From positions 32,001 to 96,000 of IMG/VR virus record IMGVR_UViG_3300048837_000975: a DNA stretch of 64,000 nt; one strand, given 5' to 3'. The notes beneath the pieces are model-generated. The model was not told where the DNA came from, made no database searches, and saw only the letters and a program-made list of their open reading frames with translations. Source of the stretch: a virus. Both the position numbers and the translations under genes were made by a program. The stretch's first letter is position 1; every line of letters begins with the position of its first letter. Shown here piece after piece: positions 40 through 55,795 of this stretch.

Positions 40-348
40 TTACTTTTGTTCCTCGCTGCCGCCCAAAGCGGCAATATTCTTGCTCAAGATTCGGATAGTT
101 GTTTGAAGGTCTTTGTTCTCAGAATTCTTCTCGCCGAGCTCCAGCTTTACGTTCCATAGCTGCTTCTGAAGCTCGTCGTTTTCGTTCTTCAGTGAGGATA
201 GCTTCCCACGAAGCCGTGCGCAAGCCTTTCTTGCGCCATTACGTCGTTTATCTGCAAGTCGCTTGAAGTGGAGCGCGGCGTCAATTTGTTCCGCTAGACC
301 GGCGGCAACCGACACTAGCTTACCAAGATTAAGGTTCTTCAGCTCCAT
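40..348 (-). CDS. hypothetical coiled-coil protein
   Basis: ORF in a tightly packed minus-strand run; heptad-like C-terminal half. Confidence 0.55.
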   Translation of the reverse strand: MELKNLNLGKLVSVAAGLAEQIDAALHFKRLADKRRNGARKACARLRGKLSSLKNENDELQKQLWNVKLELGEKNSENKDLQTTIRILSKNIAALGGSEEQK

Positions 349-7622: not shown

Positions 7623-8547
7623 AGTTCTTCTTCAATTTCAGTTGTCGCACCTCGGTCTCCGCGACCGTGTAACTCTTGCGTTTGTACTTCGAGTAGTCCC
7701 AGGATCCGGACCCATCAGGAAGCAGCCCGCGCTCATGCTGCCCGATAGACTCCGCTAGCCTGTTCTCAAGCTCGTTTACTGTCTTCTTCAAGTCCGAGAT
7801 CTGATCCTTGGTCTCCTGAAGCTCCTTGGTCCAGATCACCGCCTCATCAGGTAGGGTCACTGCCGACCCAGCCATGATGTCCAAGGCATCGATCGCGTCC
7901 TTTGACGACGTGGTGTTGTCTGCCGGGAACTCGGGCATCTTGTCGCCAGCCAGAGAGTCATAAAACTCCTGGGTCTTGCGTACAATGAGAGCGCTCAGGC
8001 CCTTGTCTCTTCTGAAGTCGCCAAACCTATGATGAAAGAACGGAGCCCCGATCACGGCCGACAGTCCACCCCAGGAGGCGCCCGTGACGATCATCTGAGT
8101 CTGCAGCTGAATCTGGTACTTCAGGTGAGGTTCACCCTTCGCTGGCCAGTTCTCTCCATTACCGGTCGTCTTCAGCTCAAGAGGCGGAAGCGGTCCAACG
8201 ATCGGCCTTCCGTCAACATCCAGAATCTCGTAGTCCAGCGTTGCGCCGAGCCACGGGTACTGCTTTGACCTCATCAGGTACTGGCAACGTCGAACCTTGC
8301 GACCGGTCTTCTTGCTGTAGAGCTCCGCAACAAGCGGCTCCATTACGTGACCCATCTCGAGGTATCCTGGGTCTTCGAGCTCTTTGCGCTCGATCCATCG
8401 TTTCTTCTCAAGCCAGATCTTGGTCGCGCCAGGCACCACGCCTAGGATAGCTGGAACCTCGCTTGCGGTGATGAGTTTCCACCTGTGCTTTAGCCAGGCT
8501 TCACGGTCGTCGTCGCCGTTGCAAACGATGTCGTAAAACTCGCTCAT
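7609..8547 (-). CDS. YqaJ-like viral recombinase exonuclease (partner of RecT)
   Basis: WL..R...ITASE...ILG...GH..EP...PWLGATLD...LELKT...Y.IQLQ.QM.VTG. Confidence 0.93.
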   Translation of the reverse strand: MSEFYDIVCNGDDDREAWLKHRWKLITASEVPAILGVVPGATKIWLEKKRWIERKELEDPGYLEMGHVMEPLVAELYSKKTGRKVRRCQYLMRSKQYPWLGATLDYEILDVDGRPIVGPLPPLELKTTGNGENWPAKGEPHLKYQIQLQTQMIVTGASWGGLSAVIGAPFFHHRFGDFRRDKGLSALIVRKTQEFYDSLAGDKMPEFPADNTTSSKDAIDALDIMAGSAVTLPDEAVIWTKELQETKDQISDLKKTVNELENRLAESIGQHERGLLPDGSGSWDYSKYKRKSYTVAETEVRQLKLKKNYGRK

Positions 8548-21601: not shown

Positions 21602-21621
21602 ATTGCGCTCCGAGGAGCGAC
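21602..21621 (+). CRISPR. solitary truncated CasPhi repeat (single repeat-guide unit)
   Basis: ATTGCGCTCCGAGGAGCGAC, 19/20 identical to the repeat core, with the change in the hairpin loop. Confidence 0.9.
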
Positions 21622-21714
21622 TAGGGCACCATATGTCAATGACCATACACTACAACATGTGCGGTGTCAATAAATTCTGTTGACTGTGTGTCAAGAACTT
21701 GGTACAAGTAGGCG

Positions 21715-31732: not shown

Positions 31733-32364
31733 ATGGGCTAATCGAAAAACTGGTTGCCGAGCTTGGTGCGCTGGACCTGGACGCGCGTGTTGAGGCGCTG
31801 AACAAGATTCGTGAGGCGCTTCACGATGTGAGCCCGTTCAAGGAGGAACCGGTCGACTTCGTTCGATGGGTTAAGTCCGATACAGTTTCCGCGAACGCGT
31901 GGAATCCAAATCACGTCGCTCCGCCTGAGATGAAGCTGTTGGAGCTGTCGATTGTCGCTGATGGGTACACTCAACCAGTGGTAGGGTACGCCATTGAATC
32001 CGGCTACGAGGTTGTTGACGGCTTTCACAGAAATCTAGTGGCCAAAACTTCACCTCAAGTACGCGAACGAGTGAAGGGTTACCTTCCGATAGTCCGGATC
32101 AAATCCGACCGAGAAGATAAGGGAGATCGGATGGCGGCCACAATACGCCATAACAGGGCTCGCGGAAAACATGAGGTAATGGCCATGTCAACCATAGTAG
32201 CCGACCTAATCAAGCGCAACTGGTCAGAAAGTCGTGTTGCTACAGAGCTCGGAATGTCCGCTGATGAGGTTTTACGCTTGCGTCAGGTTACAGGGCTAGC
32301 AGAACTGTTCGCGGATCGCGAGTTCTCAGAGGCTTGGGAGATCGTTGAGGACACTCCGGAATGA
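31729..32364 (+). CDS. ibrB: IbrB-like ParB/Srx nuclease-domain protein
   Basis: EPVD.V.WV...AN.WNPN.VAPPEM.LL..SI..DGYTQP; VDGFHR; ATIRHNRARGKH. Confidence 0.92.
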   Translation: MNGLIEKLVAELGALDLDARVEALNKIREALHDVSPFKEEPVDFVRWVKSDTVSANAWNPNHVAPPEMKLLELSIVADGYTQPVVGYAIESGYEVVDGFHRNLVAKTSPQVRERVKGYLPIVRIKSDREDKGDRMAATIRHNRARGKHEVMAMSTIVADLIKRNWSESRVATELGMSADEVLRLRQVTGLAELFADREFSEAWEIVEDTPE

Positions 32365-47067: not shown

Positions 47068-49329
47068 ATGGCTGCTAAGCGAACAACCAAAGGTAAGGCG
47101 TTCAAGATCACCGAGAAGCAGGTGAAGGGCTACGGTTATGCGAAGCCTAATCCTGTTCCGGTTACCGCCATTGTCGCTGTGAACGGCAAAGGCGCGTACA
47201 AGAAGGCGCAGTCCGCTAAGTCTGTCATGTCCGGTCGCTCCAAGTCCGAAAGGCTCGGACGCGCACGGAAGTTGACTGCAAACACCCTAAAGGGTGAGAA
47301 TGCAAAAGGTTCGGCCTCTTACAAGAGCAACAAGGAGATTGGTATGCGGAAAACGGTAGCGCGCGCTCGAGTAAGGGCCGCGCTGAAAAAGAACCCCAAG
47401 TCGCCCACTGCGGCGCAGCTGAAAGCTCGTCAAGCTTTCGCCAAGATGGTCAAGGCGAAGTCTGGTAAGCTCAAGAAGAACCCGGGCAAAACTTCTGCGA
47501 AGAAAGCTCTGGCTGCTGCGCGCAAAGAATGGGCATCAAAGATGACCGCTAACAAGCGGCGTCGCGGTGGAAAGGCCAAGAAAAAGTGGGCCACTCCGCC
47601 AAGTTGGGCTCGCGGTCCTGCTGGCACCCAGGTGATGGGCGCCATTGGTCCTACCGGAACCAAGGTGATGGATGCTGCGAGGACTACGCGCATGGACGCC
47701 GTTGGCGCCCGTACGATGGTCTCCCCGGTCTACAGTGAAAGTTCTGCGCCCACTCGGCGCGCCGGTCGCAAGACCGCTTCTGTTCGTGTTGTGAAGCCTA
47801 CTAAGAAAGCAAGAAAGGGATCTCGTAAAATGGCTCGAAAAGCGGCCAGCAAGCGCGCCAAGAAGGCCGCTTCGGTCAAGTCGGTTAAGGTTGTTCGTCG
47901 TCGTCGGAAGCGCGTTGCCAAGAAGGCGGCGAAGAGCGTCAAGTCTCGACGCACGCGCAAGGCTGCGAAGTCTCGCAAGCCCCGTCGGCGAGTGAAGCGC
48001 ACCGCGAAGAAGGCAAAGCGCACCAAGAAGGCGAGCAAGCGTCGCACCAAGAAGAGCCGCAAGGCTGCCGCGAAGAAGGCTCCCCGCAAGGCTCGCAAGA
48101 CGCGGAAGGCTCGCAAGAGCCGCAAGACGCGACGTATGCGCAAGAATGGTCTGACTCGTCGTCAGCGCGCGGCTCGCAAGGCCGCTGCCACTCGCGCGGA
48201 GAAGAAGGCGCGACGTAGCGCTGCTGCGAAGAAGGCTGCTCGCAAGCGTTCACGCAAGTCTTCTGCGAAGAAATCGGTTCGTCGGGTGCGTCGTCGTCGG
48301 TCCGCTAAGCGGACGACCAAGCGATCCGCGAAGCGTGCTGCTCCGAAGAAGAAGGCTCGCAAGGCTCGCAAGTCGCGTCGCTCGTACAAGCGCAATGGCG
48401 TCGGTGCGAAGGTCAAGAGCTTCTTCAAGCGGAATGGCGTGATGGAGATCGTGAAGTTGGCGGGTCTCGTGACCGCTGGCGTCGTGACTCACCGCGCTTT
48501 GACCGCTGGTCTGAACGCTCTCGTTCTCAACCCGCTGCTCAACCCCGCTCCGACGGTTGCTGAGCCTGCTGCGACCGGATTCGTTCCGGAAGCTGCGAAG
48601 CCGATCGTCAAGCTGCTCGCTTCGGCTGCTGTTGCCGCGGCTGGTACGCTCGCCGTCAAGGCTGTCTCGAAGGATGCTCAGGTCGTCAACTCGGTTGCTG
48701 CCGGTATGATTGCCTCGGTTCTCCATCAGGCGGTTGTGACTGCGGTGGATATGGTCTCGCCCAAGGTTGCTGGCTACCTCGCTGGCGTCGAAGACGGTAC
48801 CGCGGCTCGCCTCTCGGCGATGTACGGTTACGGCGCTGCGTCGCTGCAACCGAGCTATGCTCCGATCTCGGGCATGGGCGAGTACTTCGAGGGTACGGCG
48901 GGTCTCGGCGAGTACTTCGAGGGTACGGCGGGTCTCGGCGAGTACTTCGATAGCACCTCCGGTCTCGGCTCGTATGGCGGCAACCCCGACATCTTCGAGG
49001 CGGCGGCGGGCTACGGAATGCTCGGCGACAACTCGGACGGCTACACGAACAACATCAACCCCAATGACGACCTCGATCGCCAGCTGACGATCGCGGAAGC
49101 GGCGGCTGGTGTTGGCGCGGCGCCCTATGAGGCTGCTGCTGGCATCGCGGAAGCGGCGGCGGGCTTCGGCTCGATCCAGTCGGTTCCCTCGGCGGACACC
49201 TGGGTTCCGGGTTCTGCTAACGGTCAGCTGTGGGCGGGTACGCGAGCTGTGAGCAATCCGCAGTCGGCAACCGCGATGGTTCCGGCCGGCGTGCTCGAGA
49301 GCGGCGGCGGCGCTGGCATCTTCGGCTGA
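47068..49329 (+). CDS. histone H1-like Lys/Arg-rich protein with hydrophobic helices and acidic GLGEYF/EAAAG repeats; candidate DNA-condensing core protein
   Basis: about 450 aa extremely basic region; strongly biased codons; directly upstream of the capsid-like gene. Confidence 0.7.
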   Translation: MAAKRTTKGKAFKITEKQVKGYGYAKPNPVPVTAIVAVNGKGAYKKAQSAKSVMSGRSKSERLGRARKLTANTLKGENAKGSASYKSNKEIGMRKTVARARVRAALKKNPKSPTAAQLKARQAFAKMVKAKSGKLKKNPGKTSAKKALAAARKEWASKMTANKRRRGGKAKKKWATPPSWARGPAGTQVMGAIGPTGTKVMDAARTTRMDAVGARTMVSPVYSESSAPTRRAGRKTASVRVVKPTKKARKGSRKMARKAASKRAKKAASVKSVKVVRRRRKRVAKKAAKSVKSRRTRKAAKSRKPRRRVKRTAKKAKRTKKASKRRTKKSRKAAAKKAPRKARKTRKARKSRKTRRMRKNGLTRRQRAARKAAATRAEKKARRSAAAKKAARKRSRKSSAKKSVRRVRRRRSAKRTTKRSAKRAAPKKKARKARKSRRSYKRNGVGAKVKSFFKRNGVMEIVKLAGLVTAGVVTHRALTAGLNALVLNPLLNPAPTVAEPAATGFVPEAAKPIVKLLASAAVAAAGTLAVKAVSKDAQVVNSVAAGMIASVLHQAVVTAVDMVSPKVAGYLAGVEDGTAARLSAMYGYGAASLQPSYAPISGMGEYFEGTAGLGEYFEGTAGLGEYFDSTSGLGSYGGNPDIFEAAAGYGMLGDNSDGYTNNINPNDDLDRQLTIAEAAAGVGAAPYEAAAGIAEAAAGFGSIQSVPSADTWVPGSANGQLWAGTRAVSNPQSATAMVPAGVLESGGGAGIFG
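48877..48950 (+). repeat. 30-bp coding tandem repeat, about 2.5 copies (GEYFEGTAGL)
   Basis: GGCGAGTACTTCGAGGGTACGGCGGGTCTC exact copies. Confidence 0.95.
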
Positions 49330-49335
49330 TAGTTG

Positions 49336-49364
49336 TTGACAAATGATGTAGGTTCATGTAGTAG
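49336..49364 (+). promoter_or_regulatory. putative promoter of the capsid-like gene
   Basis: TTGACA-N17-TAGTAG. Confidence 0.45.
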
Positions 49365-49503
49365 TATCTGAACACATCGCACCTTGCCCCAGAGACTTCC
49401 GGAAAACCGGGGTCCTGGGGTTAAGGTGTCAGAAGGGTCCGAGCGGGAACCAGGCCCGTAACTAACCAAGGTAGACCTTTCAGGAAAGTAAAAGCAAAAG
49501 ACC

Positions 49504-50253
49504 ATGGCAAAAATTGTTTCTATTCGCGAGCGCGTTCATCAGCCCTTCTATGACCACCTGATCCGTACGGCTGGTATGGCGCAGGGCTCGGTCCAGGACA
49601 CGAACGCTCTGTTCACCTCGAACGGCGCGCGCACCGAGGCGACCACGAACTTGATCAACGGCGCGACGCTGCCGTCTGACCAGTCGCACGTGACCCTCGT
49701 GCTTCGCGTTTTCACGTGGTTCCGTAACCCCGTTCTCCGCGTTGCGGGTGCGGATGCTGGTGAAGTGGCTGGCAACGGCGATTATGACGATCTGGACGAG
49801 TTCCAGACCGGCGGGATCGCGGTCGGCAACGCTCCGGGTTCCACGAAGGACGTGTACCGTCTGGCGTGGCAGTCGAGCGAGCAGCTTCACTGGACGTTCG
49901 GTGCGGGTCTGAAGCCCAGCATTGACAATATGCCTACTTGGTACTTCCCGACGGGTGGCGGCCTCCTGTCGGACCTCGCCGGCAGCACGGACCTCGTGCA
50001 CCTCAACAACGGTATGCCCTCGCATGAGAGCATTCTCCGCCTCGGCCGCGCGGTGCTCATCCCCCCGCGTCAGAACATTCTCTGCACTGCCAAGATTTTC
50101 AGCCTTCCCGACGCCGGGAACGCGCTGGCGTTCGGCACGGTGCAGGGCAGCCGCAACATGCTGTCGCTCCGCGACAACCTGAACGCGGTCGACCTCGTGC
50201 AGAAGTGCGTGAGCTTCTGTATCGATGGTCTGTTCAGCCGCGACGTTCAGTAA
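49504..50253 (+). CDS. putative major capsid protein (beta-rich, single jelly-roll-like)
   Basis: 249 aa, no TM, alternating beta pattern (QPFYD...TNL..G.LP...FP.GGG...NG.P...IDGL.SRDVQ); strong codon bias; own promoter and terminator; the fold is inferred, not searched. Confidence 0.6.
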   Translation: MAKIVSIRERVHQPFYDHLIRTAGMAQGSVQDTNALFTSNGARTEATTNLINGATLPSDQSHVTLVLRVFTWFRNPVLRVAGADAGEVAGNGDYDDLDEFQTGGIAVGNAPGSTKDVYRLAWQSSEQLHWTFGAGLKPSIDNMPTWYFPTGGGLLSDLAGSTDLVHLNNGMPSHESILRLGRAVLIPPRQNILCTAKIFSLPDAGNALAFGTVQGSRNMLSLRDNLNAVDLVQKCVSFCIDGLFSRDVQ

Positions 50254-50280
50254 CAGCGGATTCTGTCGAAATCGACAGGG

Positions 50281-50316
50281 CGAAGGGGCTCCGGGGTTGA
50301 CTCGGGGCCCTTTTCG
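50281..50316 (+). terminator. intrinsic terminator hairpin after the capsid-like gene
   Basis: CGAAGGGGCTCCGGG-GTTGA-CTCGGGGCCCTTTTCG; a second small hairpin CTGTCGA-AA-TCGACAG at 50263-50278. Confidence 0.7.
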
Positions 50317-50324
50317 TCTACAAT
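50297..50324 (+). promoter_or_regulatory. sigma70-like promoter of the mini-array, embedded in the terminator
   Basis: TTGACT-N16-TACAAT, 7 nt before the first repeat. Confidence 0.7.
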
Positions 50325-50331
50325 GTAGAGC

Positions 50332-50570
50332 ATTGCGCTCTGAGGAGCGACATACAGAAGCTGACGCACCGTCGCAAATTGCGCTCTGAGGAGCGACATG
50401 CTGGGCTTCAGACCTGCGGCACCTATCATTCCACAAATTGCGCTCTGAGGAGCGACTAGAAGGGCTGATGAACGCGCTCGCGAATAGAATTGCGCTCTGA
50501 GGAGCGACAGCCGCGACGTTCAGTAACAGCGGATTTGCGCTCTGAGGAGCGACACTTGGTACTTCCCTAC
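50332..50570 (+). CRISPR. mini-array of five 5'-truncated CasPhi repeats with five self-matching guides
   Basis: core ATTGCGCTCTGAGGAGCGAC at 50332, 50378, 50437, 50489 and (19 nt) 50535; guides match 49518-50262. Confidence 0.95.
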
Positions 50571-50603
50571 ACACTGTAATCTGGAGTGGTGCAAAAAAAG
50601 TTC

Positions 50604-50632
50604 TTGCTCCGCTTCGCATGGGCTGCTACAAC
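50604..50632 (+). promoter_or_regulatory. putative cas12j promoter
   Basis: TTGCTC-N17-TACAAC with extended TG; ATG at 50642. Confidence 0.5.
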
Positions 50633-50641
50633 GCTGGAGCG

Positions 50642-52945
50642 ATGAAGAAAACGACAAATCTGAAGATTGAAAATGGCGTATCGCCGCTTGCGCAGATGAC
50701 TCGCAAGCATTTTCCGGGAAAAAGGTTTCCAGCTAGCGTCTTGAAGCCAGCTGGCAGGAAGCTCAAGGATCACGGTGAGCAAGCTGCGATCGAATTTCTG
50801 CAGGCCAACATTGATGTTCCTTACGGGAACTTTAAGGCGCCGGCAAAGTGTAATGTTGTCGCTACTAGTCGCCCGTATAGCGAGTGGCCGCTTTACAAGT
50901 TCTCATCTGAGCTTCAGAAAGCAGTCTTTGCACTCTCAAAGGATAGGCTGATGGAGATTGAACCATCAAAGCAATCCGACGCAGAGAACGAGAAGTTCCT
51001 GTCAGCGATCGGAGTCAGCGCGGATCCGTCAATTAACGTGACGTTCGTTAGCGCGTGCATTTCAAAGGCCGTGCATACGTACCTTGGAATGGAGAAGAAG
51101 GCTGAGAACAAGTACCAGAAGAAGTTGTCAAGGTGTCGCTCAGAGAGCGAGCTAAGTAGCGTCACACCAGAAAACGTATACAATGAAGACGGAACGCTTT
51201 CTGACGGGTGGCGGCCCGGTTTCAATGCTAACCTATACGGAAACTCAAATAGCAAGCTGAGTCTATTCGGATCCGTTAGGTCGCACAACAAGGTGGAGCT
51301 GCCTGTGTGGCTTTCTGAATACCGAGAGTGGGCAAAGAATCGCTCAAAGGATTCAAAGATCAATGAGTACAGCGCAAGCGTTGATCGACTGTCGATTCCG
51401 GAGGGCCAGCCCGGTCACGTTCCGCTTTGGCAAAGAGACTCGTCTAAGCGAACTAAGCCGGGCGGTGGAGAGATCAAAGAAGGGGTTCGTCGTCATCGAT
51501 GGTACTCGAACCGAAACAACGCGAACCGAAGGAACAAGGTTGACCAGGCAACCAGGTTGGCCGCATCGGCTATGGAGATGGTTCTTGCAATCGCATTCTT
51601 CGGAGAGGACTGGGTTCTCTTTGACATTCGCGGACTACTTAGGAACGCTCGCTACCGCAAGCTTGTGAACAAGAATACGACATATGGCGATCTGATGGAG
51701 TTGTTTACGGCAGATCCTGTTCTTGATACAAAGCGAGGAATCATCACCGCATCGTATAAGGACACGACTCTCAAGATCGTTCAGCAGACAATAGTCGGCG
51801 AAAAGAAGTCCAAATCCAAGATTCTGGAAGAGGTCCAGAAGAACGGGCCGGTTGCTGTTGTATCGATCGATCTCGGTGTAAATGAGCCCGTGTCGTACCG
51901 TGTGTCGAGGGTTGATGTAGCTGGAGGGAACGCCATCGTTGCCGAGCTTGCCGCTGAAGGATTCATGAGCAACGAACTAAAGAAAGAGATTTCTAGTTAT
52001 CGGGAAAAGTCGGACGAGCTTAACGGCGATCTTCGTGAGAAGGCAGTCCTTTCCCTCTCGGACGAAATGCAGGCAGAGATTCGCCGAGTCGACGCAACGA
52101 ATGCCAGTGACTCGAAGAACAGAATCTGCGAAATGCTCAGCCTGGATCCGGAAAGCGTTGACTGGTCAAAGATGACCACGCAAACCAGGTTCATTTTCAA
52201 CAAGCACGTTGAGAACGGCGGGGATCCTAACGTCCTTCTGTTCACTCCGACCGAGGACAAAAAGAACAAAGGTAAGAAGAGCAAGAATAAGAAGGGCGAG
52301 TACGGAGACAGGGTTCCGCACTCCGACAGTGGGATCGCTCGGAACATTGCCAGAGAGAAGCTCAGTATGGAGACTTGCGAGGCTCTCAACAAAGCAAAAC
52401 GGGAACTGCAACAAGAAGATCCTCGGTATGGTAAGCTTTCCAAGCGAAAGCAGGAGTTCGCTCGACGCGTAGTGAACGGAGTGGTTGTGCGCGCACAGGA
52501 AGTCACTGGGTGTGATAACGTTGTGCTGGTCGTTGAGAAGCTCAACGTATCAAACAAGATGTTTAGCGGAAGCGGAAAACGAGCTCCAGGATGGGACAAC
52601 TTCTTCGTTCACAAGAAAGAGAACCGCTGGTTTATTCAGGCGCTACACAAGGCGTTCACCGACAAGGCTGCGCACAAGGGCATTCCTGTAATCGAAATTA
52701 AACCGAGCTATACAAGTCAGACTTGCCCAGCGTGCGAGCATTGTGACAAGGACAACCGAGACGGGGTTCACTTCTGCTGCACCAGGTGCGGGTTCACCGG
52801 TCACGCGGACCTCAACGTAGCGTGCTTCAACATTGAGAAAGTTGCTCTTACTGGAGAAGCTATGAGCGGACCCGGCAGCGCAACTGCGCACAAAAAGACT
52901 CGCAAACCAAAGAAGGCTATGGTAGAGTCAGATAAAGCCGCGTAA
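50642..52945 (+). CDS. cas12j: CasPhi (Cas12j) type V CRISPR effector
   Basis: KHFPG.RF; NF..PAKC.VV..SR...EWP; PG..P.WQR; D.RGLLRNAR; FT.DPV.D; RuvC-I SIDLG; RuvC-II VEKLNV; GSGKR.PGWDNFF..KKENRWFIQ.LHKAF; zinc ribbon; RuvC-III ADL.VA. These match the CasPhi-2 sequence as recalled. Confidence 0.97.
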   Translation: MKKTTNLKIENGVSPLAQMTRKHFPGKRFPASVLKPAGRKLKDHGEQAAIEFLQANIDVPYGNFKAPAKCNVVATSRPYSEWPLYKFSSELQKAVFALSKDRLMEIEPSKQSDAENEKFLSAIGVSADPSINVTFVSACISKAVHTYLGMEKKAENKYQKKLSRCRSESELSSVTPENVYNEDGTLSDGWRPGFNANLYGNSNSKLSLFGSVRSHNKVELPVWLSEYREWAKNRSKDSKINEYSASVDRLSIPEGQPGHVPLWQRDSSKRTKPGGGEIKEGVRRHRWYSNRNNANRRNKVDQATRLAASAMEMVLAIAFFGEDWVLFDIRGLLRNARYRKLVNKNTTYGDLMELFTADPVLDTKRGIITASYKDTTLKIVQQTIVGEKKSKSKILEEVQKNGPVAVVSIDLGVNEPVSYRVSRVDVAGGNAIVAELAAEGFMSNELKKEISSYREKSDELNGDLREKAVLSLSDEMQAEIRRVDATNASDSKNRICEMLSLDPESVDWSKMTTQTRFIFNKHVENGGDPNVLLFTPTEDKKNKGKKSKNKKGEYGDRVPHSDSGIARNIAREKLSMETCEALNKAKRELQQEDPRYGKLSKRKQEFARRVVNGVVVRAQEVTGCDNVVLVVEKLNVSNKMFSGSGKRAPGWDNFFVHKKENRWFIQALHKAFTDKAAHKGIPVIEIKPSYTSQTCPACEHCDKDNRDGVHFCCTRCGFTGHADLNVACFNIEKVALTGEAMSGPGSATAHKKTRKPKKAMVESDKAA

Positions 52946-53133
52946 TGATCTAAAACGCCGAGATCCTCTGAACCGGAGGCGCTCGCAAACAGAAATTGAC
53001 AACAAGTTCGACAGGATGCCATCTGAGCATAGAATGGCACCAGGAGGCACGAGCGCGAGATCGCTCCCGGATCGGAAAGGCTCTCGCAAACCGTTCGGTA
53101 ACCGCGCGAATCTACAGGGTCTCACGGAGACCC

Positions 53134-53662
53134 ATAGAAACCCCTACAAATTGCGCTCTGAGGAGCGACGACCGCCAAAGCAGCCAAGGTGCCAGCGCTA
53201 CCGACATAGAAACCCCTACAAATTGCGCTCTGAGGAGCGACTGACCACGGGATCGCTCGCCGTCGTGAACGGAATGATCATAGAAACCCCTACAAATTGC
53301 GCTCTGAGGAGCGACCCAGTGTTCGTGACCTCTACCGCCGTCTACTTTTGGCATAGAAACCCCTACAAATTGCGCTCTGAGGAGCGACTTGGTGCCAGCC
53401 TCACCACGACCGCCGCATCAGGCGCGATAGAAACCCCTACAAATTGCGCTCTGAGGAGCGACTGAGTCCACCCAATCACTATCGAGCATATGCCACTCCT
53501 ATAGAAACCCCTACAAATTGCGCTCTGAGGAGCGACCGCGACGAACGCAAAGAGCTTGTGGCTGCGGCCCGCCATAGAAACCCCTACATATTGCGCTCTG
53601 AGGAGCGACTTAGCTTCGCCGAGGATCTAGAAACCCCTACAAATTGCGCTCTGAGGAGCGAC
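53134..53662 (+). CRISPR. CasPhi CRISPR array, 8 repeats of 36 bp and 7 spacers (36, 38, 37, 38, 38, 37, 17 nt)
   Basis: ATAGAAACCCCTACAAATTGCGCTCTGAGGAGCGAC at 53134, 53206, 53280, 53353, 53427, 53501, 53574 (1 SNP) and 53627 (1 SNP); ATTG-hairpin-AC 3' end typical of CasPhi. Confidence 0.99.
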
Positions 53663-53788
53663 ACTCAAACGGAACGAACGTCAGGGGAGACGCCACAAAA
53701 CGTAAAGCTTGATTGAATTCCTGCGTCATGGTAACTTGCTATGTGTTGCAGCCCGCCATGTTGGCGGAGACCCAATCATAGGAGAACC

Positions 53789-54721
53789 ATGGCAAATATC
53801 GATCTGACTCAGCTCATTCAATCCGCTAATTTTGCGAGCGCGGCCGCGCGTAAGCACGAGCAGCAAATCTCTGGCATCGGAATGCGCGTTGCGGAGATTC
53901 AGAAGGAGTTCGGCAACCTTCGTGATGCTCTTTCGCGCGTTGAGATCTCGTCCCGCATGGGCGATCCCGGAATTCAGCGTGTTGAGAACATTCCCGGCCG
54001 ACGAGTGCCCTTCGATCTGCTCGTAGACATTCCGATCGCTGCGGGCAGCACCGCTGTTCAGCAGGGCACTATCACGATCAGCCAAGAAGGCCCGTTCGTG
54101 GCGGTCTCGCGCTTCGCTACGCTGCTTTCTGCGTACGAGTACACCTACACGGAGCCCGGCACTTCTAGCACGACGCGTTACCAAGGCCGCAGCTACGGCC
54201 GGTACCGCCCGATTCACTCTGCGTGGGATCTGAACGATGGCAATCCGATTGCGACTACGACTCTGACGACTCCGCCCACCTTCCCTGGTACCGGTGCGCC
54301 TCTGATCGTGTCTCCGAGCAACGCGAGCAGCTTCCGCACGATGGAGGGAGACTTCCGAATCAAGTTCGAGAACGCCGGTTCCAGCTTCCCCAGAAGCAAC
54401 CTCGAAGTTCCGAGCCCGTTCTGGACGAAGAGCATCAACGAGGCATTCGATCTTGGGGCTCTGGATGTGTTTGAGCGCGGCGAGGTGCTGAGCTTCCGTG
54501 TTCTTCCGCTTCATGCCGCAAACGCCTCCTATGGCAACCTCGCTGGCTACGGAACGGGCGACTATCCGTACATTGAGTCGCAGTGGGATGCTGTCGAAGG
54601 TATTGACGATACGGTCGACGCGGAAGCCACGGTGGATCCGATTACGCGTTACCCGAACTCGATTCTGACTATTGGCTTCCACGGATACCGGATCATCCAA
54701 CAGCCGGGCGTCGTCTACTAA
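53789..54721 (+). CDS. second beta-rich capsid-like protein with N-terminal coiled coil
   Basis: AGGAG SD; beta pattern ending LTIGFHGYRI; biased codons. Confidence 0.55.
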   Translation: MANIDLTQLIQSANFASAAARKHEQQISGIGMRVAEIQKEFGNLRDALSRVEISSRMGDPGIQRVENIPGRRVPFDLLVDIPIAAGSTAVQQGTITISQEGPFVAVSRFATLLSAYEYTYTEPGTSSTTRYQGRSYGRYRPIHSAWDLNDGNPIATTTLTTPPTFPGTGAPLIVSPSNASSFRTMEGDFRIKFENAGSSFPRSNLEVPSPFWTKSINEAFDLGALDVFERGEVLSFRVLPLHAANASYGNLAGYGTGDYPYIESQWDAVEGIDDTVDAEATVDPITRYPNSILTIGFHGYRIIQQPGVVY

Positions 54722-54729
54722 GGAGCATT

Positions 54730-55560
54730 ATGAGCGATTTCGCGAGGCAATTTAGCCAAGCGTTCGCGCAGACCAACCCGCACATCGGTGGCAATCGTTC
54801 TGCCAGTGTGCGGGTTGGACAACCGGCGCCAATTCCCGAGTCCGTAAGGGGTCGGGGGTGTAGCGACGCTGCGCGCACTGTTGTGGCTGGCGGAGCAATG
54901 TCACAGTTGCTTCTGCACCCTACGTTCGTTCCGTTTGAGCTTACGTTCCGTAAGCTACCCGACGACGGCGTTTATACCGCTAACAGAATAAACCAATACG
55001 CATTTGAGCTTGGATCCTTCACGGTTCCCACTTCGATGTCATTGGCTGTCGCGGAGTACTCGTTTCGACCTTACCGCATCTCTGGGGCTGCTCCTGGAGA
55101 AGCTGTTCCGCTCGAGACAGGTAGATTGTCGTTGGAGCTTGCGTACGACCTGAACATTGACCAGTACCGTAAGGGAAACATCAAGACACAGGTTGTCCCG
55201 CGGCTACCTTCGCCTGCACAGAACGCGTTTGCTGGTAATCCTTCTGGCGGATCTGTGTTTCAGCAGTCGGTTGGCGGGCTGGCTGGATCGGCGTCGCTGG
55301 CGAGCTTCAACTCTGACGTTACATCCGGGCTCACCAACTATGGTGACGCTCTCATCATTCAGGGAACAAAGACTCAGCAGGGTCCTGAGAAGTTCCCGTT
55401 CACCTATTACGTTAGGTCCAACCAGGCTGTTCAGATGCGAGTGATCGTGTTTGGGCAGATCACGATTCCTCTTGCGTTCTTCGAGGGCGTGTTGAGCGGG
55501 TATCTGATGCCGCAGAACACTCTTGAGTCGATGCTTGACGGCGTGAGTCCCTGTCAGTGA
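54730..55560 (+). CDS. third beta-rich capsid/vertex-like protein
   Basis: AGGAG SD; FELGSFTVP...EGVLSGYL. Confidence 0.5.
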   Translation: MSDFARQFSQAFAQTNPHIGGNRSASVRVGQPAPIPESVRGRGCSDAARTVVAGGAMSQLLLHPTFVPFELTFRKLPDDGVYTANRINQYAFELGSFTVPTSMSLAVAEYSFRPYRISGAAPGEAVPLETGRLSLELAYDLNIDQYRKGNIKTQVVPRLPSPAQNAFAGNPSGGSVFQQSVGGLAGSASLASFNSDVTSGLTNYGDALIIQGTKTQQGPEKFPFTYYVRSNQAVQMRVIVFGQITIPLAFFEGVLSGYLMPQNTLESMLDGVSPCQ

Positions 55561-55651
55561 GTTTGCTTGTTGCGTTGCTGCTGCGGAGGAGACAAAACAC
55601 CCTACGTGGCAGCGGCGCAACGGGCAGTATCGTTAGCGAAGAGAGTGGATA

Positions 55652-55795
55652 ATGGCAAAGACAGTTTCCGTTATCTCTGGAGTGCCTGATGGGCTGAGCG
55701 GATCGCCTGGAGCGACTATCGTTCCGTGGGTGATCATTGCCAGTGTCGTTGGATTTGTGTTTTGGTCTACGACATGTCAGATTAAGGGGAGCTAA
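55652..55795 (+). CDS. 47-aa membrane protein (absent from the ORF track)
   Basis: MAKTVSVISGVPDGLSGSPGATIVPWVIIASVVGFVFWSTTCQIKGS; TAATG overlap with the next gene. Confidence 0.65.
   Translation: MAKTVSVISGVPDGLSGSPGATIVPWVIIASVVGFVFWSTTCQIKGS

Follow-up and report, generated by a model that had tools for sequence, protein, structure and literature searches.

A guide behind the last repeat of a phage Cas12j array matches a gene beside its cassette and may be directed against kin

Some viruses carry short CRISPR arrays aimed at their own relatives. The mini-arrays of SPV1 and SPV2, as described by Medvedeva et al. 2019 (PMC6858448), target co-occurring kin near the arrays, and the carrier locus shows point mutations or deletions. 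They are the closest precedent for the element studied here, a Cas12j cassette in a 64,000-nucleotide (nt) stretch of viral DNA (the window; positions 32,001 to 96,000 of IMG/VR record IMGVR_UViG_3300048837_000975), which is part of a virus record of 125,690 bp with a CheckV completeness of 78%. Behind the last repeat of its main array lies a short guide, here called guide T, that matches gene Z just outside the cassette, while a mini-array at the other end carries guides a to e against gene X. As far as the published description of SPV1/SPV2 goes, the likeness lies in virus-borne spacers that appear to be directed against kin of the same population, in targets near the arrays, and in a changed own locus, the last applying to guide T only and not to guides b, c and d. 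On the same description, the SPV arrays hold one or two canonical spacers, contain no cas gene and use host type I machinery, whereas the phage here encodes Cas12j; moreover, guide T follows the last repeat, has a 19-nt match to its presumed source and stands beside guides that match the carrier perfectly. Relative to this precedent, the locus thus stands out by a phage-encoded Cas12j, a terminal-repeat guide, presumed functional lengths of 17–19 nt and neighbouring guides hitting the carrier.

The use of DNA behind a last repeat has been described for another type V effector. According to Liao et al. 2019 (PMC6610086), Cas12a arrays whose terminal repeat is intact produce a functional CRISPR RNA (crRNA) from downstream sequence that is able to direct targeting, and 11 of 14 native arrays carry disabling mutations in their last repeat. 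The present case is similar in its type V effector, its intact last repeat and its downstream-derived guide, here read from the sequence alone. It differs in that the extraneous Cas12a crRNA, in that account, is an unwanted by-product of synthetic arrays, whereas guide T has a specific natural match and looks used.

A literature search found no paper on Cas12j guides aimed at cassette-flanking genes. The Cas12j, or CasPhi, effectors of huge phages are reportedly treated by Pausch et al. 2020 and Al-Shayeb et al. 2020. As portrayed in PMC8298400, they share with this locus a phage-borne single effector of about 700–800 amino acids (aa) with one RuvC site, 36-nt repeats, a 3' hairpin handle, a T-rich 5' protospacer-adjacent motif (PAM) and a 17-nt hybrid, and differ in that Cas12j3 uses TTN while the flanks here are mostly TCA. 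In addition, the present record measures 125.7 kb and does not exceed 200 kb as those of huge phages do.

The features that carry the main finding are the following.

53134..53662, + strand: main array of 8 repeats and 7 spacers, with a 19-nt 3' handle core identical in all 8 (sequence).
53627..53662, + strand: terminal repeat 8, first base C, handle intact (sequence).
53663..53681, + strand: terminal guide T, position 1 mismatched, positions 2–19 matching gene Z (sequence).
54922..54939, - strand (non-target strand): guide T site, codons 65–70 (TFVPFE) of gene Z (sequence).
54940..54943, - strand: Leu codon CTT and the next base, which form guide position 1 (G) and the PAM slot TAA (sequence).
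54730..55560, + strand: gene Z, 276 aa, jelly-roll-like, a possible virion protein (open reading frame, ORF; homologues; model).

An earlier note on this DNA had reported that 53664–53681 is the exact reverse complement of 54922–54939, and a script check (18/18) and BLAST (E 4.4e-5 against the 125,690-bp genome) bear this out. Its observation that guide position 1 is mismatched and that the self flank reads TAA is likewise confirmed by the sequence: position 1 (53663, A) faces a G at the carrier site, GTAA stands 5' of the site on the non-target strand with TAA in the PAM slot, and identity ends past guide position 19. The matched site lies 1.26 kb from the array, inverted, and 190 nt into the coding region of gene Z. 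When 1,500 shuffles of the 38-nt guide and 1,500 38-mers of the reversed genome served as a null, the longest exact genome match had a mean length of 11.3 nt and peaked at 16 and 17 nt in the two sets, and none of the 3,000 reached the observed 18. Chance is very unlikely because the match beats this null, is anchored at guide position 2 and falls so close to the array; the guide T match is real and not due to chance.

The PAM of this Cas12j can be estimated from the other guides. Contigs of four public runs were compared with window positions 49400–55700, and all sister and foreign contigs described here come from run X1. Two contigs of this run match only spacer 2 (53242–53279) and only spacer 6 (53537–53573), respectively, over the full 37–38 nt, and their unrelated 5' sequence ends in ..GATCA and ..AGTCA at the match start. 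Both contigs are unrelated to the window on either side of the match, and the matched segments are probably protospacers that belong to other mobile elements from this habitat. The targets of spacers 6 and 2 gave 0 matches in viral_contigs. In gene X, the matches of mini-array guides a–d begin at the first base of the guide and are flanked by ATCG, GTCA, GTCA and GTTC. Overall, T at -3 and C or T at -2 occur in 6/6 readable protospacers and TCA in 4/6, so that the PAM of this highly divergent Cas12j is estimated as T-[C/T]-N, with TCA as the most frequent form. These flanks fall within TBN, the rule for CasPhi-2. The carrier's own guide T site is without a PAM, since its flank reads TAA against T-[C/T]-N in all six others. 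For Cas12j3, as described in PMC8298400, the PAM is TTN and double-stranded DNA (dsDNA) lacking a PAM is not cut.

The missing PAM comes down to a single codon. Leu codon 71 of gene Z (CTT) supplies all three letters concerned, PAM positions -2 and -1 and guide position 1, and among the six Leu codons CTT alone gives A at PAM -2. Guide position 1 is A, so the source allele would have T at the first codon base; if Leu was kept, the source codon is therefore TTG or TTA (TTR). With TTG at 54940–54942 the PAM would be TCA and with TTA it would be TTA, and the match would then be 19/19. The codon logic of the earlier note, in which TTG encodes the same amino acid and creates a TCA PAM, is thus upheld and sharpened to TTG or TTA. 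Leu also occupies the codon 71 position in the close homologues P0001–P0003. At greater distance, metagenome_contigs contains 8 related loci with 40–48% identity, in which 10–15 of the 18 guide T site positions are identical and no Leu is present there. No relatives of Cas12j or Z were found in viral_contigs, and the phages collection gave no match.

Would such a guide be made and could it work? The anatomy of the array bears on both questions, and three further features belong here.

53574..53609, + strand: repeat 7, A to T at repeat position 16 (sequence).
53610..53626, + strand: spacer 7, 17 nt, without a self match; its length equals the 17-nt hybrid limit given for Cas12j3 (PMC8298400).
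53682..53779, + strand: trailer to the right cassette edge, without a decayed repeat or + strand terminator (alignment, terminator scan, sister contig).

The repeats of the main array, each 36 nt long, start on the + strand at 53134, 53206, 53280, 53353, 53427, 53501, 53574 and 53627, and spacers 1–6 measure 36–38 nt each. Repeat 7 has its single change outside the handle core, and repeat 8 differs in its first base only, with C instead of A. The 19-nt core is identical in 13/13 copies (8 main-array repeats and 5 mini-array cores), and elsewhere in either strand it occurs once, with one mismatch, at 21603. The hairpin of the repeat handle forms in the minimum free energy (MFE) fold. The Cas12j3 handle is described as involving C-1, A-2, G-17 and U-18 (PMC8298400), and as these are present here, the 19-nt core represents the whole structural handle. 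Repeat 8 thus has what a terminal crRNA requires, an intact handle identical to the other 12 cores, and no + strand terminator was found between repeat 8 and gene Y. Among the listed runs that contain this stretch there is no RNA run. In the Cas12j3 structure, as reported in PMC8298400, the crRNA–DNA hybrid splits past pair 17, and pairing of more than 12 nt activates the nuclease. A hybrid of 17 nt would explain the short lengths at this locus: 17 nt for spacer 7 and for guide b, 17/18 for guide a and 18 for guide T.

The claim of the earlier note that spacer 7 is 17 nt long and without a clear match also stands, as no second site with at most 3 mismatches exists in the window and no match of at least 12 identities in the 125,690-bp genome. 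A 13/16 complementarity of spacer 7 to the cas12j coding region was taken as chance, given that no site with at most 3 mismatches exists in the window. No decayed ninth repeat follows guide T (alignment score 14 against a shuffle mean of 14.1). As a query, the 19-nt handle core gave 0 matches in viral_contigs; a single-copy match in genome_contigs (L009) was regarded as chance because about 4 chance matches are expected (2 x 596 billion bases / 4^19, our own estimate).

A few observations on the repeats stand apart from this. The solitary core with one mismatch (21603–21659) lies behind a promoter-like site, and the 38-nt 'guide' that follows it has no match of at least 12 identities within the 125.7-kb record. 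In the MFE fold of repeat 8 plus trailer, 53725–53732 pairs with the start-codon region of gene Y (53785–53792), and the repeat 5' ACCCC pairs with GGGG(A) directly after guide T; the z-score of this fold is only -1.79, and 7 of 200 shuffles fold equally well.

Array and effector belong to a cassette that some relatives lack. Its remaining parts and the first gene beyond it are listed below.

50318..53779, + strand: Cas12j cassette consisting of mini-array, cas12j, main array and trailer (skipped in a sister-phage contig).
50333..50553, + strand: mini-array of five 19-nt handle cores, with five guides that all match gene X (sequence match).
50618..52945, + strand: cas12j, 775 aa (PDB phmmer, Pfam PF07282).
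53008..53035, + strand: promoter-like site upstream of the main array (TCGACA-16-TAGAAT, 10/12 matches, consensus match only).
53789..54721, + strand: gene Y, 310 aa, first gene past the cassette (ATG behind an AGGAGA ribosome-binding site).

One X1 contig (3,998 nt, depth 17.4) follows 49400–50317 with 37 differences and then joins 53780, skipping 3,462 nt; this joint is seen in one contig only, with 44 nt on its short side at 80% likeness. The skipped segment includes guide T (53663–53681) and the 98-nt trailer. Its left edge falls directly after the T-run of the terminator of X and its right edge directly before the ribosome-binding site of Y; no terminal inverted or direct repeats were seen at the edges, and the joint has 0 shared letters. 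In the distant relatives L003, L004, L007 and L008, X and Y are 166–178 nt apart and followed by Z, the cassette being absent in 4/4; the other 4 of the 8 distant loci begin within Y or later and do not span the site. Being skipped in the sister contig and absent in these four relatives, the cassette is an insertion into an X-Y-Z module. The presence of a cassette-less sister phage in a public run also means that the kin are real. Over the guide T site, a sister contig of run X1 (7,993 nt) shows 56 differences across 54632–55700 (1,069 nt), a divergence of about 5%; it encodes the Z homologue P0001, which is 98% identical. A further X1 contig matches from 50380 (the second mini-array repeat core) onward, after 227 nt of unrelated sequence, which suggests that another element in the sample carries the same repeat core.

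The effector is assigned as a Cas12j with intact RuvC residues. Its best solved relatives in a phmmer search of the PDB are CasPhi-3 (7odf, E 7.8e-133) and CasPhi-2 (7lys, E 3.7e-124), and three RuvC motifs (IDLG, E, ADL) align with the CasPhi structures. Residues D418, E640 and D731 are invariant in 6/6 sequences, in an alignment with the only five other homologues found, none of which exceeds 37% identity to this protein. The traits of type V-J are present, namely a Cas12j homologue, the RuvC D/E/D triad, a 36-nt repeat and a guide directly 3' of the repeat.

At the left end of the cassette, the mini-array is aimed at gene X (49504–50253). Guide a matches 17/18 nt, b 17/17, c 33/33 and d 27/27, while guide e has a 14-nt match; the spacers are 14–33 nt pieces of the adjacent gene in both orientations. 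Where guides a, b and e deviate from gene X, the mismatch lies at a third codon position in 4/4 cases, and at two of these four the sister phage has yet another base, for which reasons the mini-array guides look copied from natural alleles of relatives. Among the six flank-directed guides, T is the sole one from which the carrier is clearly protected. In the pairs b/e (49922/49936) and a/d (50222/50236), the two guide targets lie on opposite strands with starts separated by 14 nt, and their PAM sides are turned toward one another across a gap of 13 bp. Guide T is without such a partner: at this spacing, the + strand from 54954 matches 0/13 guides, with spacer 7 agreeing at 6/14 positions.

We tentatively favour the reading that guide T is a kin-derived terminal-repeat guide against a relative's Z allele, with the carrier disarmed by one synonymous codon, and give it somewhat less than an even chance. 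The last array unit would then be a working, or recently working, kin-directed guide. Through the repeat 8 handle, Cas12j would make an 'extraneous' terminal crRNA with the sequence that follows, as is the case for Cas12a. The first 19 nt of guide T would stem from a relative's Z allele with a TTR Leu codon and hence a T-[C/T]-A PAM. The Z gene of a relative with this allele would be bound and cut by Cas12j, 1.2 kb rightward of the cassette position. The carrier copy would be safe as dsDNA, because a single synonymous codon, CTT, abolishes the PAM and also the pairing at position 1. Trimming would have shortened spacer 7 to 17 nt, the longest Cas12j hybrid, and left it usable. In the end the rival may be excluded, or it may receive a copy of the cassette.

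Several results weigh against this reading. Across 92 long ORFs, 609 (27%) of the 2,230 codons for Leu are CTT, and in Z the share is 7 of 22, so that the PAM-null codon alone is weak evidence, a coincidence to be expected about one time in four. The search for the TTG allele in viral databases that the earlier note had proposed returned nothing: the site pattern gave 0 matches in viral_contigs, the degenerate codon pattern 0 matches in viral_contigs and genome_contigs, and the predicted TTR allele was not found. As identity stops at nt 19 and spacers 2 and 6 match their targets end to end, guide T is not a canonical full-length acquisition, and no match to Cas1 (PF01867) was obtained in the 125,690-bp, 78% complete record, Cas2 and Cas4 not having been searched. 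Furthermore, guides b, c and d match gene X of the carrier perfectly beside TCA, TCA and TTC, so that self-avoidance is not general at this locus; given the carrier's tolerance of self-matches, 'escape' becomes a weaker explanation for CTT. Each of guides a, b, c and e fits the cassette-less sister with one mismatch more than the carrier. The earlier proposal of kin targeting with self escape is therefore only partly sustained: the codon logic, the absent PAM and the cassette-less sister speak for it, and the missing TTR allele and the self-matching guides b, c and d against it.

Among the alternatives, a functionless relic survives best, although we consider it rather unlikely. Guide T would here be the stump of the oldest spacer, derived from a relative's Z, after a trailer-end deletion removed its 3' half and the next repeat; spacer 7 would have been cut to 17 nt in the same way, and the likeness to the carrier would be due only to closeness of lineage. 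Decay at the trailer end is typical, repeats 7 and 8 are each changed and spacer 7 is short, yet both truncations end at or just above the 17-nt hybrid length given for Cas12j3 (PMC8298400) and not below it. The abrupt end of identity at nt 19 with no ninth repeat left fits a deletion, as does an 18-nt identity that is unsurprising for a kin-derived piece when carrier and sister diverge by about 5%. The handle of repeat 8, however, is untouched, whereas native Cas12a arrays disable theirs in the 11 of 14 cases already cited (PMC6610086), and guide T is one of six guides that are all aimed at genes beside the cassette.

Distinctly improbable, in our view, is a self-directed regulatory guide that acts independently of a PAM. 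Cas12j would cut at repeat 8 and leave T as the 5' end of the Y-Z message, and T would pair with Z RNA or with the displaced single-stranded (ssDNA) coding strand, so as to tune Z or to activate Cas12j at late transcription or replication. Relative to the Z mRNA, guide T is indeed antisense, and its pairing partner in DNA is the non-template strand (predicted RNA duplex -29.7 kcal/mol), and the array is not separated from Y and Z by any + strand terminator found. The two guides that follow a last repeat, e and T, are short (14 and 18 nt) and lack T at -3 or a pyrimidine at -2. Regulatory crRNA-like RNAs of the CreR/CreA type have a partial match beside a PAM in a promoter and a degenerate repeat; guide T departs from this pattern, with a match in a coding region, no PAM and a full consensus handle. 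We know of no RNA-targeting by Cas12j, which counts against this alternative, and the position-1 mismatch and PAM-null codon are predicted by escape and not needed by a regulator. In its favour, PMC8298400 describes Cas12j3 as activated by ssDNA that lacks a PAM once pairing exceeds 12 nt; against it, in the account of PMC9226536, ssDNA targeting by Cas12a has no detectable role in immunity.

Highly improbable is an assembly by-product without a guide role, that is, a short inverted insertion templated by a replication template switch (chance included): the piece is short (18 nt) and inverted with its source 1.26 kb away, the mini-array spacers are likewise 14–33 nt pieces of the adjacent gene in both orientations and the null tail reaches 16–17 nt, but the copy sits within one base of the repeat 3' end, PAMs accompany 4/4 internal guides that match the carrier, a sign of selection or of PAM-dependent acquisition, and 0/3,000 null 38-mers reach 18 nt.

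The reading of guide T as a kin-directed guide can be carried further, to a 3.46-kb cassette that is a natural RNA-guided homing or drive element and carries a fixed set of guides at either end, the stripped-down mini-array at the left and guide T at the right; we regard this as quite unlikely. Flanking genes of cassette-less sisters would be cut in co-infection, and recombinational repair would copy the cassette in. Guide T would show how the right flank is spared through a single PAM-null synonymous codon, and the 17–19 nt of spacer 7 and of matches a, b and T may reflect selection toward the 17-nt hybrid. RNA-guided homing by TnpB/IscB is reportedly covered by Meers et al. 2023. The locus resembles free-standing phage homing endonucleases and TnpB in that the nuclease gene is absent from the same site in close relatives (the sister contig and, further away, 4/4 distant relatives), the target lies in a neighbouring conserved gene and, for T, the own site is disarmed. 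Unlike in homing elements, the left-flank guides are not disarmed in the carrier, and cleavage and co-conversion are conjectural here; a TnpB guide, moreover, is DNA just outside the element end, while guide T lies inside the cassette with an inverted site 1.2 kb away. A simple model that cuts the empty site and spares the full one does not fit the left flank, where b, c and d match the carrier perfectly beside PAMs and the sister fits guides a, b, c and e worse. Of the earlier suggestion that structural genes on both sides are targeted as by a homing endonuclease, the guides against X and Z remain, and the homing analogy stays a conjecture.

The genes around the cassette differ in how well they can be placed. 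None of X, Y and Z has a match in Pfam or PHROGs, and no BLASTP similarity supports paralogy among the three. Gene Z has 13 homologues with 34–98% identity, the closest protein being 98% identical (P0001) and P0002 66% identical. The six targeted residues rank 28 among 271 windows for conservation and lie within one of the three best-conserved blocks, the neighbouring window 63–68 being joint third. The gene Z model is of low confidence (pLDDT, a per-residue model confidence score, 56.7) and has a beta-sandwich core. Its best structural matches (VIA) are small virion proteins of the jelly-roll type, namely an SPV1 capsid chain with a Z score of 8.3, HHIV-2 with 8.2 and the cyanophage Pam1 capsid-entry chain 7eel_H with 7.2, scores in a range that the comparison tool classes as common. 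Matches of the model in BFVD reached a template modelling (TM) score of 0.32 or below. Together this suggests a borderline jelly-roll fold, and a virion protein is plausible. The label 'capsid-like' given to these genes earlier thus holds for Z at borderline strength (jelly-roll, best Z score 8.3, pLDDT 56.7) and was not borne out for X.

Gene X belongs to a large and strongly conserved family, with 671 homologues, of which the 120 listed show 62–97% identity, several of them on contigs of 118–138 kb; its fold model (pLDDT 48.8, best Z score 5.8) is too poor for placement. Gene Z diverges much faster than X, and an 87%-identical X homologue and a 54%-identical Z homologue are each listed on a 16,657-nt contig. 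The X homologue of distant relative L004 is interrupted twice, at 7875–8116 and 8299–8542, by group I introns of about 235 nt that are 98% identical to each other; with Rfam RF00028, whose gathering score is 50, they reach 77.4 and 76.8 bits. Their positions in X correspond approximately to residues 125 and 185. Of the two intron sites, the first is about 20–25 nt from the expected cut of guide b, and the second is not near any guide site. In 49300–55700 of the window, Rfam gave nothing relevant.

If the reading of guide T as a kin-directed guide is true, a phage uses the last-repeat type V crRNA, normally regarded as an accident to suppress, as a fixed anti-kin guide, with self-protection reduced to one synonymous codon. 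The homing reading, if true, would be of high interest. The locus and its cassette-less sister would also form a concrete allele pair for asking whether CRISPR systems carried by phages serve as weapons of exclusion or as homing elements, and what the minimum length of a natural Cas12j guide may be.

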